A DNA stretch of 64,000 nucleotides. It comes from an uncultured delta proteobacterium. GTDB taxonomy: Bacteria > Myxococcota > Myxococcia > Myxococcales > Anaeromyxobacteraceae. Each line of letters opens with the position of its first letter. Position 1 is the stretch's first letter. The position numbers were made by a program, and so were the translations under genes. The notes beneath the pieces were generated by a model. It was not told the origin of the DNA. It saw only the letters and a program-made list of their open reading frames with translations, and made no database searches. Location of the stretch: the NCBI GenBank assembly GCA_963814585.1, contig CAWFDF010000009.1, positions 192,001-256,000 of the forward strand, in the 5' to 3' direction. This document shows, one piece after another, positions 766 to 63,065 of this stretch.

Positions 766-807
766 CGGATCCAGCAGCTCACCGGCGCACGACGACAGCC
801 GTCTCAG
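766..807 (+). repeat. Decayed copy of the hicB 3' end (direct repeat of 1800-1841)
   Basis: 35/42 identities, including an exact 15-mer cggatccagcagctc. Encodes RIQQLTGARRQ versus hicB RIQQLAGARR*. Confidence 0.8.
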
Positions 808-856
808 CACTGCGCGTTCCTCTCGTCCGGCTCGGCTGGGCGAGGTGTTTCGCGGC

Positions 857-865
857 TGGTAAAAT
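857..865 (+). promoter_or_regulatory. Extended -10 promoter (TGg-TAAAAT), probably leaderless
   Basis: TAAAAT at 860-865, 7 nt before ATG 873, with no SD. Confidence 0.55.
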
Positions 866-872
866 CGAACAG

Positions 873-1160
873 ATGGTCCTGGCCCCCACCACCTTGATTC
901 CGCTGGCTCGCAAGTACCTGTGGTGGAAGTCACCTGAAGAGGCGGTCGCCTCCCCGGAGCGGTTGATCGCCCAGGTCATGGACATCGGCGACTTCGCGGA
1001 CGTCTCGGCGCTGGCAGCACAGGTCGGGGATGAGGTCTTGCGCGACGTGCTGCTGCACGGCGAGGCCGGCCAGGTCAGCGATCGCTCCTGGACCTACTGG
1101 CACTACCGGCTCGGACTCGCCAGGGTCGGCGAGCGGCGCGCCCTCACCATTACTGTCTAG
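873..1160 (+). CDS. Small protein of the type usually found upstream of AbiEii/AbiGii nucleotidyltransferase toxins; orphan, C-terminus possibly truncated
   Basis: ARKYLWWKSPEEA...RLIAQVMDIGDFADV...AGQVSDRSWTYWHYRLG. No nucleotidyltransferase follows. Confidence 0.55.
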   Translation: MVLAPTTLIPLARKYLWWKSPEEAVASPERLIAQVMDIGDFADVSALAAQVGDEVLRDVLLHGEAGQVSDRSWTYWHYRLGLARVGERRALTITV

Positions 1161-1194
1161 TCGCCTTGACAGTTCGGTCGCATGGGGATAGCGT
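1152..1194 (+). promoter_or_regulatory. hicAB sigma70 promoter with overlapping palindromic operator
   Basis: TTGACA 1166-1171, 17-bp spacer, TAGCGT 1189-1194, ATG at 1202. Inverted repeat ACTGTCTAG-tcgc-CTTGACAGT (8/9) at 1152-1173 covers the -35. Confidence 0.7.
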
Positions 1195-1201
1195 CCATGC
1201 C

Positions 1202-59766: not shown

Positions 59767-60455
59767 CGAGTCGTGGCCTCGCGCTCCAGCAAGGTGCCGC
59801 GCAGGTCGACGTGGTCGAAGATGCGGGCGAGGAACTCGCGCTCGCTGATCTTCCACCGCTCGGCGAGGTGGAGGTTCCGGTCCAGCCCCTGGTAGGTGAG
59901 CGTGAGCAGGGCCCAGAGCGTCTCCAGCACCCCCTCGCCGCGCACCGCCACCGCCGGCACCATGGGCGGGCGGATCACCTTGCGCAGGTCGCCGAGCTCG
60001 TCCTCGCGCTGGGCGTCGGGGAGGTCGCGCTTGTTGAGCTGGATGACGATGGGCAGGGTCCGGTAGTCGAGCCCGTTCGCCTCCAGGTTCTTCAGCATGT
60101 TGTTCCAGTAGGCCAGGGTGGCGGCCGCCTCGCTGCGGCGGCTGTCGGAGACGAAGACCACCGCGTCGGTCCCCTGCAGGACGATGCGCCGCGTCGACTC
60201 GTGGATCACCTGGCCCGGCACCGTGTAGAGCCGGAGCTTCACCTTGACGCCGGCCTCGGTCTTGAAGAAGACCGGCATCATGTCGAAGAAGAGGGTCCGG
60301 TCGTCCTTGGTGTCCAGCGTCATCAGCCGGCCGCGGACCTCGGGCGACATCTTCTGGTAGAGCGCCTGGAGGTTGGTGGTCTTCCCGGAGAGGGCGGGAC
60401 CGTAATACACGACCTTGATGGACAGCTCGCGCGCGTCGTTGTTGATCTGGACCAT
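59763..60455 (-). CDS. sofG: MglA-family small GTPase, SofG-like
   Basis: YYGPALSGKTTN; DRTLFFD; TVPGQVIH; NKRD; C-terminal EFLARIFDHVDL extension; no mglB; near dif. Confidence 0.78.
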   Translation of the reverse strand: MVQINNDARELSIKVVYYGPALSGKTTNLQALYQKMSPEVRGRLMTLDTKDDRTLFFDMMPVFFKTEAGVKVKLRLYTVPGQVIHESTRRIVLQGTDAVVFVSDSRRSEAAATLAYWNNMLKNLEANGLDYRTLPIVIQLNKRDLPDAQREDELGDLRKVIRPPMVPAVAVRGEGVLETLWALLTLTYQGLDRNLHLAERWKISEREFLARIFDHVDLRGTLLEREATTR

Positions 60456-60637
60456 GGGCCTCGCCTCGCGGCGAGCATAGCCGCGCCCCCGGGGTGATCC
60501 AGCCGACGGCCGCGAATACTCCCGGTCCGGCCGGCGCCTCGCCGTGGTCCCTTGGAGGTGGTTGGCCCTTGGACTAGGATCGAGGCGGTCCCGGCCGGGA
60601 CCCCTCACCGGCCGGAGAACGAGGAGTTACTGCCCCG

Positions 60638-62395
60638 ATGGACCGCCCGGTCCCCGTCCGCGCCGACGACGTCCCAGAGAGCGAGATGGTGGAGCGGCTC
60701 CAGTGGCTGCTCCGGCTCCGCTGGCTGATCGTCCCGGTCTTCGTCGCCGTCGACCTGGCCAACGACCTGCTCACCCGGCGGCGGGCGGCCTGGTCCGCGC
60801 TCTTCATCGGCGCCGTCCTGCTGCTGGCCAACGGCGCCTATGGCTGGCTGCTGCGGCGCCGCATCGGGCTCCCCGCCCTGCTGCGCTGGATCCGCTTCGA
60901 GTCGGTGCTGGTGGTGCTGGTCCCGGTGGCGGTGGCCGTGCTGCACGGCGAGCCGGACAGCCCGGTCCGCTACGGGGTGCTGGTGGGCGTGGTGGGCGCC
61001 GCGGTGGCGCTGCCCCGGACCGGCGAGGTGGCGGTGGTGGCCATGTGGGCGGTGGCCGCGCTGATCGTCGGCGACGCCGTCGCCATGGGGTTCGACCCCG
61101 GGCGCATCGACCAGCGGGTGGTGGCGCGCTGGGCCTGGGACACCGGCATCATCGTCACGGTCGCCATCGTCGCCGGCCACCTCCACCAGGCGCGGGAGTG
61201 GGGGGCGCAGCGGCTGCGGGCCGCCCTGGCCGGGCTGGCGCACGCCACCACCGAGTGGGAGGCGACCTTCGACTCCCTGTCCGAGATGGTCTTCATCTCC
61301 GACCCGGAGGGGCGGCTGGTGCGCGTCAACCGGGCCTTCGGCAAGCTGCTGGGGGTGCGGCCCCACGAGCTGGCCGGGCGGCGGCTCTCCGACCTGCTGG
61401 CCGGCCACCCGGAGCGCTGGTGGTCGGTGCCGGGCGACGGCATCGTGGAGATCGACGACCCGGTCTTCGACACCGTCTTCGAGGTCACCTCGGTGCGGCT
61501 GGGGGAGCGGGTGGTCCGCGTGGCGCGCGACGTGGGCGAGCACCAGCGGCTCTACGCCCGGCTGGTCCAGGCCGACAAGCTGGCGGCGGTGGGCGTGCTG
61601 GCCACGGGCGTGGCCCACGAGATCAACAACCCGACCGCCTTCGTCACCTCCAACCTGACCGAGCTGAAGCAGTACGTGGCCAGGCTCGACGCGGCGGTGG
61701 TGGAGCTCTCCGAGCTGGCGCTCCGGTCCGGCGCGGTGGAGCAGGCCAGCGAGGTGCTGACCCGCCACCAGCTGGCGTTCGCCCGGCGCGAGGCGCCCAC
61801 CGCCATCCGCGAGAGCCTGGCCGGCATGGAGCGGATCCGGCAGGTGGTCCAGAACCTGCGCTCGCTGGCGCGGCGCGACCAGTCGGGGGAGCCGGCGGCG
61901 CCGGTGGAGCTGGGCGAGGTGGTGCAGACGGTGGTGCAGACCGCGGCCTTCGAGCTGCGAAAGGCCGCGGCGCGCGTCGAGCTGCAGGGGCCGGTCTGGG
62001 TGATCGGCCACCGCGGCGAGCTGGTGGACGTGGTGCTCAACCTGGTGGTCAACGCCGTGCAGGCGCGCGACGACGGGCGGGAGAACCGCGTGGCGGTGGA
62101 GCTGGGGCGCGACGGGTCGCAGGCGGTCCTGCGGATCGCCGACACCGGCAAGGGGATCTCGGCCGGCCACCTGAAGCGGCTCTTCGAGGCCTTCTTCACC
62201 ACCAAGGCGCCCGGCGAGGGGACCGGGCTCGGGCTCAGCCTGGCCCGGAAGATCGTCCTCTCCCACGGGGGATCGATCGACGTCTCGAGCGAGGTGGGCG
62301 TCGGTTCGACCTTCACCGTCCGGCTTCCGGCCATCGACCCCGAGCGCCGGCTGCGGGACGCGGCGGCGGACGGCGCGGCGGTCCCGACCGCCTGA
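60638..62395 (+). CDS. Membrane PAS-domain sensor histidine kinase
   Basis: N-terminal TM helices; WEATFDSL..GRLVRVN; VAHEINNP; FFTTK..GTGLGL. Confidence 0.9.
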   Translation: MDRPVPVRADDVPESEMVERLQWLLRLRWLIVPVFVAVDLANDLLTRRRAAWSALFIGAVLLLANGAYGWLLRRRIGLPALLRWIRFESVLVVLVPVAVAVLHGEPDSPVRYGVLVGVVGAAVALPRTGEVAVVAMWAVAALIVGDAVAMGFDPGRIDQRVVARWAWDTGIIVTVAIVAGHLHQAREWGAQRLRAALAGLAHATTEWEATFDSLSEMVFISDPEGRLVRVNRAFGKLLGVRPHELAGRRLSDLLAGHPERWWSVPGDGIVEIDDPVFDTVFEVTSVRLGERVVRVARDVGEHQRLYARLVQADKLAAVGVLATGVAHEINNPTAFVTSNLTELKQYVARLDAAVVELSELALRSGAVEQASEVLTRHQLAFARREAPTAIRESLAGMERIRQVVQNLRSLARRDQSGEPAAPVELGEVVQTVVQTAAFELRKAAARVELQGPVWVIGHRGELVDVVLNLVVNAVQARDDGRENRVAVELGRDGSQAVLRIADTGKGISAGHLKRLFEAFFTTKAPGEGTGLGLSLARKIVLSHGGSIDVSSEVGVGSTFTVRLPAIDPERRLRDAAADGAAVPTA

Positions 62396-62437
62396 CCCTC
62401 CGGAGTTCCTCGGAGATCGAACTACTCTGGGTGGGGA
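62392..62437. repeat. Repeat copy C (kinase stop + spacer + dinG-end-like sequence)
   Basis: Gapless 37/46 match to 62967-63012, with an exact 17-mer atcgaactactctgggt. Confidence 0.85.
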
Positions 62438-62535
62438 GGGCCGGTCGCCCCGGACCGGCGGGCCGCGGTCGAGCGGGGGGCATGTGGGGGGAGGTGCGGT
62501 TGAATACCGGCCGGGCCTGGAGCATCCATGGGGGC

Positions 62536-62970
62536 ATGCGCACCCTCATCGCCGCCGCCATCGCCGCCTCGCTGCTCGCCCCCGGTGCTTCCTCGGCCCA
62601 GGTCCAGGTCACGCTCAGCTTCGACCTGCCCGCCGTGCTCCCCGCGCTCGTGATCATCGAGCCGGGCATCCAGGTGGTGCCCCAGGTCAACGAGGAGGTC
62701 TTCTTCGTGGACGGGTTCTACTGGGTGCGGCGCGACACCCGCTGGTACCGGTCGCACGACCACCGGCGCGGCTGGGTGGTGGTCGATCAGCGCGGCGTGC
62801 CGTCCCGGCTGGTCAAGTACCCGCCCGGCCAGTACCGCCGCTGGGATCCGCACCAGGGGAAGCACGACCACGACCACGGCCACGGCAACGGCCACGGCAA
62901 GGGCGAGAAGGAGAAGAACGGGAACAGCGGCAAGGAGAAGCAGGGGAAGGGACACGGCAAGGACGACTAA
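62536..62970 (+). CDS. Small secreted protein with Trp/Tyr-rich core and His/Gly/Lys-rich tail
   Basis: Signal peptide MRTLIAAAIAASLLAPGASSA; FFVDGFYWVRR..WY; KHDHDHGHGNGHGK. Confidence 0.8.
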   Translation: MRTLIAAAIAASLLAPGASSAQVQVTLSFDLPAVLPALVIIEPGIQVVPQVNEEVFFVDGFYWVRRDTRWYRSHDHRRGWVVVDQRGVPSRLVKYPPGQYRRWDPHQGKHDHDHGHGNGHGKGEKEKNGNSGKEKQGKGHGKDD

Positions 62971-63065
62971 CCCCCCGATCTTCCTCGACCATCGAACTAC
63001 TCTGGGTCGGGAATGACGCAGTCCTGACGCGTCATGATGCGGCGCTGAATTACTCTGGGTCGGGA
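62967..63065. repeat. Repeat copies B (62967-63012) and A (63047-63065, real dinG end) separated by a palindrome
   Basis: tactctgggtcggga exact at 62998-63012 and 63051-63065; atgacgc-N9-gcgtcat at 63013-63035. Confidence 0.85.

Follow-up and report, generated by a model that had tools for sequence, protein, structure and literature searches.

Minimal mobile elements of Neisseria are known as cargo that is interchangeable between two conserved genes, with no recombinase involved. How toxin–antitoxin (TA) pairs enter a genome and build up at hot spots when no mobility gene accompanies them usually goes unexplained, and this question arises from a 64,000-nucleotide (nt) stretch of DNA, hereafter the window, from an uncultured member of the Anaeromyxobacteraceae (GCA_963814585.1, contig CAWFDF010000009.1, positions 192,001 to 256,000), in which four sets of direct repeats enclose small accessory genes. 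The closest described cases come from other cargo. In the accessible sections of Furuta, Abe, and Kobayashi (2010, PMC2853133), restriction–modification (RM) genes are described as inserted with long variable duplications, often over start or stop sites; according to the same sections, this kind of insertion is found mostly in naturally competent species. The accessible part of Kirchberger (2017, PMC5361080) explains the immunity arrays of type VI secretion systems (T6SS) and strings of rhs orphans by anchored displacement through homology-facilitated illegitimate recombination (HFIR). Finally, Touzain (2010, PMC2884548), as far as its accessible portion goes, reports short variable segments, 10–18% of them flanked by direct repeats, which are attributed to slippage and to homology-assisted illegitimate recombination.

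How does the window compare? The first-pass annotation had read it as four independent sites of one capture route. All four repeat sets are present where it placed them, but they are not one single phenomenon: two sites are clean (sites 2 and 3), one is reversed (site 1), and one is an unrelated dispersed repeat (site 4). The cargo consists of HicA and a HicB-like protein at site 1, XRE-ImmA/IrrE and PIN proteins at site 2, HTH and DUF6036 proteins at site 3, and a small gene without family assignment at site 4. At sites 2 and 3, a TA cassette is enclosed by the intact end of a host gene on one side and by a stub of that end on the other, and the region is a surface-polysaccharide locus. We assign a probability of about 60% to the reading that sites 1–3 were left behind when DNA was captured again and again, without a recombinase, at recombination hot spots in this locus, and that erosion and retention of the TA pairs followed. 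Variable cargo at fixed junctions, displaced gene ends, whole-gene spare copies, deletions at microhomologies, foreign alleles among the stubs, and the lack of a local recombinase are all observed.

The assembly (G000, in which the window is C9:192001-256000) comprises 4.34 Mb in 18 contigs, with 73% GC, and is 91.7% complete. Its genes were called with our own hexamer model, and because these calls are imperfect, so are the gene-based counts below. Compared with relatives, 6 of the 15 host genes in the window are frameshifted; since host genes are affected too, frameshifts in the cargo are uninformative about decay. The comparison set, made up entirely of other species, consists of relatives from the same genus and 92 genomes of the family. 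Unless a Pfam or NCBIfam match is cited, the names capD, ptp, fcl, gmd, ddl, moaD, vapBC, and relBE are what we take the genes to be from their translations. Between positions 12500 and 30000, the window carries polysaccharide genes with lowered GC (57–72%), most of which the gene model missed.

Site 3 lies between a ligase gene and an fcl-like gene, all features being on the plus strand:

33304..35649, plus strand: O-antigen-ligase/TPR gene (PF04932 weak, TPR), frameshifted in the assembly; 35619-35642 is the left repeat copy of site 3
35700..36448, plus strand: HTH antitoxin-side gene (HTH_20), in two frames in the assembly, cargo; homologs follow ligase stubs in G012
36441..37021, plus strand: DUF6036 nucleotidyltransferase gene (PF19502), cargo
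37054..37086, plus strand: ligase 3'-end stub, 24 nt identical, then the Leu-Lys tail of other genomes' alleles, not Leu-Arg
37107..38057, plus strand: epimerase gene, presumably fcl-like, right boundary of the hot spot

The two copies (35619-35642 and 37054-37077) match at 24 of 24 positions, and with a score of 24, the stub exceeds the shuffled maximum, which is 12. The idea that one copy of each pair is intact and the other decayed thus needs amending, as neither copy is decayed within these 24 nt, and at site 1 the decayed copy is the upstream one. Beyond the match, the tails are Leu-Arg at the intact end and Leu-Lys at the stub, and both exist as intact alleles in the genus. Ligase and fcl share a contig in 9 of 12 genus relatives, the comparison set for this site. 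The junction is empty (82 nt) in G006, which is another species, and is filled in the other 8 of the 9 with 426–1935 nt of mostly different cargo. Alleles with different cargo, which the first-pass annotation had expected in relatives, are therefore present here, and so is the expected empty allele, in G006, although site 2 has none among 61 genomes. Among the nine filled alleles (G000 included), a stub scores above the shuffled maximum in G000 and G009.

Where does the stub come from? In G008, the stub and its cassette are colinear with the intact end and cassette of G002 (776 nt, 84%), and in G009, the stub and a relE-like remnant are colinear with the intact end and gene of G115. The window's own ligase end with its HTH cassette is colinear with stub-plus-cassette units in G012 (72–73% over 184–196 nt). 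The G008/G002 and G009/G115 pairs are displacements, in which a newer end and cassette lie by the gene and the older unit has been pushed back. Two more TA-like loci of the window, at 32750-33246 (relBE-like) and 41666-42165 (a small gene and a truncated nucleotidyltransferase-like gene), have no flanking stub.

As for site 2, it lies between two genes that face each other:

4946..5965, plus strand: wbpP/tviC-like epimerase gene, whose stop and final codons are supplied by the antisense wecA stub
5942..6047, minus strand: wecA 3'-end stub that has lost 87 nt internally, at an imperfect microhomology of 12 nt
6103..6603, minus strand: PIN-domain gene, cargo (PF01850, E 1.6e-4, below cut-off)
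6637..7722, minus strand: XRE-HTH and ImmA/IrrE peptidase gene, cargo (PF01381, PF06114)
7723..7878, minus strand: leader between the wecA stop and the cassette, with blocks common to the DNA after capD in G007 and G001
7879..9368, minus strand: wecA-like gene with one frameshift in the assembly; 7879-8083 is the intact repeat copy of site 2

The two matches (5942-6012 with 7879-7949, 71 nt, 99%; 6001-6047 with 8037-8083, 47 nt, 89%) together are one copy of the wecA end carrying the 87-nt internal deletion. The wecA ending is native, as relatives indicate, and wbpP lacks the ending found in G005 and reads into the antisense stub. The proposal that host open reading frames (ORFs) are kept intact is thus not simply so: wbpP still closes, but with a stop borrowed from the stub. 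The XRE-ImmA/IrrE gene occurs in at least 8 of the 92 family genomes, and in G007 the same gene lies between two capD ends (59 nt, 92%). Because the leader shares blocks with capD loci and G007 has this gene between capD ends, the cassette has switched its host gene. The likeness of the leader to the DNA downstream of capD (G007, G001) begins at a 9-nt match around the stop codon; a stop-to-stop deletion would be the simplest route for the switch, and capD pieces follow wecA in G012.

In relatives, the stubs form stacks. G007:C3 holds five capD ends within 8.3 kb, G012:C28 five extra ligase ends, and G012:C5 six capD pieces. Matches to the capD end occur in 13 of the 92 family genomes, singly in 10 and severalfold in 3 (8, 6, and 3), and a family search with the ligase end found little beyond the genus. 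The stack cargo, as sampled by 20 hand-picked proteins, includes AbiEi/AbiEii, AAA-subtilase, Schlafen, and HNH genes. In G012, copies of the ligase-fcl-gmd block are collapsed: a ligase start is fused to a ligase end, and DNA from upstream of fcl to an internal gmd piece and a gmd end. At deletion joints, the overlap between aligned blocks is 12, 14, and 11 nt in three G012 cases and 12 nt in the wecA stub, and one G007 joint has none. The stubs of the G007 and G012 stacks are eroded whole-gene copies, with microhomologies of 11–14 nt at the deletion joints. Other stubs derive from TA genes, from HNH genes, or from the starts of genes, and age polarity by identity is not evident in the G012 stack.

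Did the spare copies arise in the host, or did they come from other strains? The 1.2-kb ligase remnant of G012 differs from that genome's own ligase at 92 of 1,164 nt, of which 44 differences are synonymous (48%); three functional ortholog pairs gave 49%, 51%, and 44%, against 29% for random change. All 8 differences of the G001 wzc stub are synonymous, as are 17 of 32 in a G007 capD pair. From these ortholog-like shares it follows that part of the spare copies acquired their differences in other strains, as functional genes. The wzc stub belongs to a particular arrangement (L048:15504-16200, that is, G001:C15:380503-381200): a wzc end, the first part of an rfbF-like gene, and a second wzc end that differs at synonymous sites only, with no called genes in the region behind. 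It is likely a capsule-locus swap scar.

Taken together, a route of five steps can be proposed. DNA of a related strain, comprising a host gene end and a TA cassette, would enter, most likely by natural transformation. One side would recombine by homology within the resident gene, and the other would join at a microhomology or through a misaligned crossover at an older stub. The outcome would be a donor end and cassette beside the intact gene, with the resident end and cassette pushed downstream, an end state that is seen in relatives; misaligned crossovers at stubs could also let stacks grow. The spare host-gene copy then shrinks, as the joints show, by deletions between imperfect repeats of 11–14 nt, to a stub abutting the next promoter. 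TA pairs would be retained by addiction: from the known biology of these families, they would persist because their loss is toxic. Survivors would mainly be insertions in which the intact copy keeps its stop or start, and this may give the bias toward gene ends. The first candidate named by the first-pass annotation, homology-anchored illegitimate recombination, is thus the best fit. Its capture route stands as far as it is integrase-free and leaves gene-end stubs beside accessory cassettes, but not as one aimed at stop codons, since 5'-end, internal, and TA-gene stubs are also present; nor do cargo alignments bear out the fixed cassette ends implied by its "self-contained modules".

Another question concerns how general such stubs are in G000. 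Among 3,439 genes, the scan returned 20 rows of 3' ends copied downstream and 7 of 5' ends copied upstream. After 7 and 6 of these, respectively, had been dropped as paralogs or repeat-domain proteins, 12 events remained against 1 (p 0.003); the unfiltered count was 21 against 11–13 matches, so that paralog removal is needed. The true bias is weaker than 12:1, because start calls are less reliable and four more 5'-type copies were seen by eye. Seven of the 12 events are tandem duplications of 42–96 nt, six of them at convergent junctions (where 28% of genes lie), and the other five enclose 0.7–3.1 kb, two being sites already noted in the window. The seven tandem duplications lie over stops at C14:261759, C14:204567, C12:137388, C4:226112, C3:107164, C9:190088, and C4:387460, and several contain hairpin-like DNA. 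Inside the duplication of the ddl end lies an array of ~85-nt repeats (C3:288049-288571). The suggested enrichment of TA cargo was borne out with 15 hand-picked TA-like loci and 600 of 627 gene pairs as controls: a flanking repeat (score of at least 22) was found at 5 of 15 loci and at 3 of 600 controls, and outside the window at 2 of 10 (p 0.002).

Site 1 is the reversed case:

1..663, minus strand: 5' part of a two-domain HNH nuclease gene that continues left of the window, two ORFs here; inside the ptp-start duplication; weak Pfam HNH match on the downstream ORF
766..847, plus strand: remnant of the end of an earlier hicB allele (final 11 codons and bases downstream of them); left repeat copy of site 1
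873..1160, plus strand: orphan antitoxin-side gene with altered end; a homolog precedes an AbiEii gene in G009
1202..1423, plus strand: hicA toxin gene (PF07927, above cut-off)
1434..1832, plus strand: hicB-like antitoxin gene (PF15919, just below cut-off); its end, 1800-1841, is the right repeat copy of site 1
1888..1922, minus strand: stub of the 5' end of a phosphatase gene, presumably ptp-like, 3.95 kb leftward (36 nt, 89%)
3333..3548, minus strand: decayed piece, presumably capD-like and from near the 3' end; sole capD-like DNA match in the assembly

In the pair (766-807 and 1800-1841, 42 nt, 83%), it is the upstream copy that is decayed, and hicB, itself part of the cargo, is the intact gene. 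The left copy extends to 847, and its 82 nt match hicB and 40 downstream bases of G007:C165 at 83%; because of these further bases, it is a remnant of an earlier hicAB allele. A larger duplication, of the 5' type, encloses the whole stretch; it repeats the ptp start at a distance of 3.95 kb (36 nt, 89%). In G012, ptp lies directly opposite wbpO. The ptp start (1888-1922) and the capD piece (3333-3548) are stubs that had been overlooked. An HNH nuclease gene adjoins the site; it spans 1-663 of the window and 1.2 kb leftward, has an internal repeat, and is split in this assembly. In G001, G005, and G007, the gene encodes ~600 amino acids (aa), its location differs among relatives, and once it lies inside a 74-nt gene-end duplication. 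In a contig of sequencing run X3, 2089 is followed directly by 3152, which marks one more deletion, in a close relative.

Could an enzyme have moved the cassettes? The first-pass annotation had seen no recombinase, transposase, or terminal inverted repeat, and this holds for the families tested. G000 has four tyrosine recombinase matches (PF00589), none in the window, two rve and four Y1 (PF01797) matches, all outside it, no resolvase above the cut-off, and no match to DDE_Tnp_1 (IS4/5) or IS110. The best match to the integron integrase TIGR02249 reaches 76.9 bits, against a cut-off of 265, in this 91.7% complete genome. Among the five longest inverted pairs per site, none is convincing; the sole pair touching both ends of site 2 (21 nt, 76%) has one arm within the stub. 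An Rfam search gave 0 matches. Insertion sequences (IS) with long duplications were rejected, given the lack of DDE_Tnp_1 and IS110 and the position of the two rve matches outside the window, with other IS families not searched. Retro-insertion was set aside with no RVT_1 in G000 or G012 (it occurs in 4 of 13 genus genomes), end joining with no Ku found, and loss of mismatch repair with mutS and mutL present. The uptake genes comEC and dprA are present in G000.

Several observations weigh against repeated capture followed by erosion. The 24/24 identity at site 3 is what a copy of the host's own DNA would show, the G008 stub is borderline (its score of 14 equals the shuffled maximum), and no ligase stub is found in 6 of the 9 filled ligase|fcl alleles. 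None of the 61 genomes has wbpP directly against wecA, the empty allele of site 2. Two of the five TA-like loci in the window lack a flanking stub, and three long 3'-stub insertions outside it hold no TA pair by manual reading. A second G007 capD pair has merely 3 of 17 differences synonymous. In G000, nine pooled stubs and tandem copies differ by 10, 10, and 11 at the three codon positions, with 10 of 31 synonymous, a pattern compatible both with a donor from the same species and with host DNA that was duplicated and then drifted. As comEC and dprA, like mutS and mutL, are found in 10–11 of 14 control genomes, their presence is no demonstration of competence. Furthermore, the accessible part of PMC5361080 reports HFIR to be rare.

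Some of these points lead to another account, a true target duplication, in which a cassette fills a break or nick as a patch and 24–200 nt of host DNA are copied on both sides, or a tandem duplication came before; the cargo or a neighboring HNH nuclease could make the break. The identity at site 3, the ddl stub with 0 mismatches in 53 nt, the unbiased differences of the G000 stubs, the seven 42–96 nt tandem duplications over stops (6 of 7 at convergent junctions), the HNH genes inside or beside three duplications, and the repeats over start or stop sites in the accessible sections of PMC2853133 all speak for it. We nevertheless hold it unlikely, because the long remnants differ as foreign alleles do, whole genes and three-gene blocks are duplicated in G012, stub-and-cassette units match intact alleles of other genomes, and four of seven HNH loci have no flanking gene-end duplication. 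Could the units propagate themselves? RecA might excise a circle of gene tip and cassette, which would re-integrate wherever a copy of the tip exists, be it in that cell or in a different one, as the twofold presence in G012 of a ligase-tip and HTH-cassette unit, 94–98% identical and away from the intact gene, and the position of tips before cassettes in stacks would suggest. This is improbable: stub length for one gene ranges from ~17 nt to 1.2 kb, many stubs are shorter than the 30 bp that the accessible portion of PMC2884548 names as the threshold for RecA, and no repeat joint of site 1 or site 2 appears among the joints shown for four sequencing runs, for which contigs only were used (48 joints lie outside those shown).

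Equally improbable, or slightly more so, is that sites 1–3 are relics of integrative elements or trans-mobilized islets whose tyrosine integrase used gene ends as attachment (att) sites and was later lost. Homologs of the site 3 cargo do lie in tRNA-Glu islets of G005 and G009, which have repeats of 78–85 nt, one element end in common, and no integrase among their gene calls; 59 kb outside the window there is a tyrosine recombinase gene that has a 38-nt repeat; and ligase, wecA, and capD alleles end in G-TAG-GGG, a context of 27 of 3,159 genes that was noticed post hoc. Apart from G-TAG-GGG, however, sites 1–3 have no common core, stub starts vary, 5' and internal stubs are present, and cargo alignments stop at the TA promoter and not at shared element ends. 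A fixed att core and conserved element ends occur only in the tRNA-Glu islets of G005 and G009, for which the integrase-relic account is real. An artefact of an error-prone long-read assembly is very improbable: frameshifts affect 6 of 15 host genes, and no listed contig of the four runs spans a whole repeat pair, but the copies are diverged or internally deleted, other assemblies have the same architecture, and an X3 contig (29 differences) covers 1188-2089, across the hicB end and ptp stub. Finally, we would give little credence to a dedicated, undescribed pathway of this genus in which host gene ends serve as docking sites for integron-like, polarized TA and defense arrays in surface-polysaccharide loci, without a recombinase, possibly driven by the dispersed, transposase-free HNH nuclease genes through cuts near gene ends and switching host at stop-codon microhomologies. 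Against all of these, repeated recombinase-free capture, erosion, and TA retention remains the account we prefer.

Site 4 stands apart from sites 1–3 and is three copies of a repeat associated with REP-associated tyrosine transposases (RAYTs), REP being the repetitive extragenic palindrome:

62420..62437, plus strand: REP-like repeat, copy 1
62529..62970, plus strand: small secreted-looking gene, no Pfam or NCBIfam match
62995..63012, plus strand: REP-like repeat, copy 2
63048..63065, plus strand: REP-like repeat, copy 3, which gives dinG (other strand) its last codons and stop

It had been taken for a duplication of the kinase stop and dinG end. The pair (62389-62437 and 62964-63012) matches over 49 nt at 80%, and a third 18-nt core lies at 63048-63065; this core, which supplies the last codons of dinG, is a dispersed repeat with three matches in the window against 0.00 expected and 24 copies in the genome, 23 of them outside called genes. 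Two identical Y1-transposase genes of 300 aa are each bracketed by an inverted pair of it, and a third has it nearby; among the four PF01797 genes, the flanking pair is clean at two, looser at one, and absent within 2 mismatches at one. The core is absent from all 10 relative loci examined. The same cargo gene, free of repeats, is found between kinase and dinG in G001, G002, and G008, and as a neighbor of dinG in G012; the kinase–dinG interval is without it in five genomes and is occupied by other genes in G009. With 24 dispersed copies, Y1-transposase flanks, and repeat-free relatives, a gene-end duplication is ruled out; from these comparisons, the repeats were apparently added around an older variable gene.

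In RAYT-REP systems, as Nunvar (2010, PMC2817692) describes them, Y1 transposase genes are flanked by an inverted repeat pair that is also dispersed between genes and is lineage-specific. Site 4 resembles them in the Y1 gene with its inverted pair and in the dispersed extragenic copies, and differs in having only 24 copies and no clear hairpin in those of the window (folding z-scores 0.64, 0.29, and -1.38). We call it REP-like because its copies do not fold well and number 24 instead of the usual >100. As a mover of sites 1–3, a RAYT was rejected, there being no repeat copy near them. The identical RAYT-type genes of G000 (C14:375403-376672 and C8:452970-454239) have identical flanks too, and identical flanks at different places suggest recent movement of the rayt unit itself.

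Some other loci deserve mention. Six dispersed HNH-type genes of ~390 aa in G000 (C3:107197-108381, C3:289499-290659, C3:462804-463946, C4:395024-396412, C10:106938-108014, and C16:86222-87364) are 52–62% alike, have no adjacent transposase, and in five of six cases share a conserved 5' stretch of ~190 nt; they behave like a nuclease-only mobile element. The tyrosine recombinase gene beyond the window lies in G000 C9:314659-320164, just behind tRNA-Phe, with its 38-nt repeat 5.5 kb apart, and inside is a TA-like pair flanked by a 46-nt copy of part of an HTH gene. The tRNA-Glu islets with homologs of the site 3 cassette are L115:6499-8858 and L116:5938-8344; they share an element end, and no integrase was called in them.

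What do these loci add to the known systems? The analysis shows no new enzyme or class of element, and it cautions against taking a repeated 3' gene end, on that ground alone, for an att site. Intermediates survive in these loci, namely an empty allele, cassettes standing singly, older ends that were displaced, whole-gene spare copies at several stages of erosion, and stubs that are foreign alleles. A model of anchoring, displacement, and erosion thereby becomes testable by sequence within one genus, with TA cassettes behind housekeeping genes as its cargo. The first-pass annotation knew no named system that matches the pattern, but, as far as the accessible parts of PMC2853133 and PMC5361080 go, insertion with long target duplication and HFIR displacement arrays both do. 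As for stacks of TA cassettes behind gene-end stubs in such loci, no account was found in the literature searched, most subscription papers being outside its scope.

Neisseria minimal mobile elements resemble the ligase|fcl and kinase|dinG junctions, and since clean replacement leaves no stub, they fit the six stub-less filled alleles but not the stacks. To judge from the accessible sections of PMC2853133, RM gene insertion accompanied by a long duplication of the target shares small addictive cargo, the lack of integrase and transposase, variable direct repeats, and survival of the target gene. The inserts of sites 1–3 are likewise small (1.0–1.9 kb, that is, <20 kb, without integrase or transposase), and the duplication exceeds 30 bp at site 2 (71 + 47 nt) and site 1 (42 nt), whereas site 3 (24 nt) stays below the 30-bp criterion of those sections. 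Unlike there, the cargo here is TA and defense genes (HicAB, XRE-ImmA/PIN, and HTH/DUF6036 instead of restriction or modification genes), insertions stack at one gene end, and the long stubs go beyond copied targets, being alleles of foreign origin and whole-gene copies that have eroded. The HFIR arrays of PMC5361080, in the part accessible, share an upstream anchor gene, a new module adjoining it, and an old module shifted back with its old 3' end; in those arrays, the copies come from different strains. Here, the older module is shifted from the constant anchor in G008 versus G002 and G009 versus G115, and different-strain copies are found in the G012 ligase remnant, the G001 wzc stub, and one G007 pair, and are not seen among the G000 stubs. 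The anchor there is a toxin gene and the kept genes are immunity genes, whereas here unrelated polysaccharide genes act as anchors and entire TA pairs as cargo. For the small variable segments of PMC2884548, the accessible portion describes no stacking of cassettes behind gene-end stubs. Collectively, these comparisons most likely place the loci within enzyme-free gene capture of a known type, extended here from RM genes and T6SS/rhs toxins to TA cassettes.

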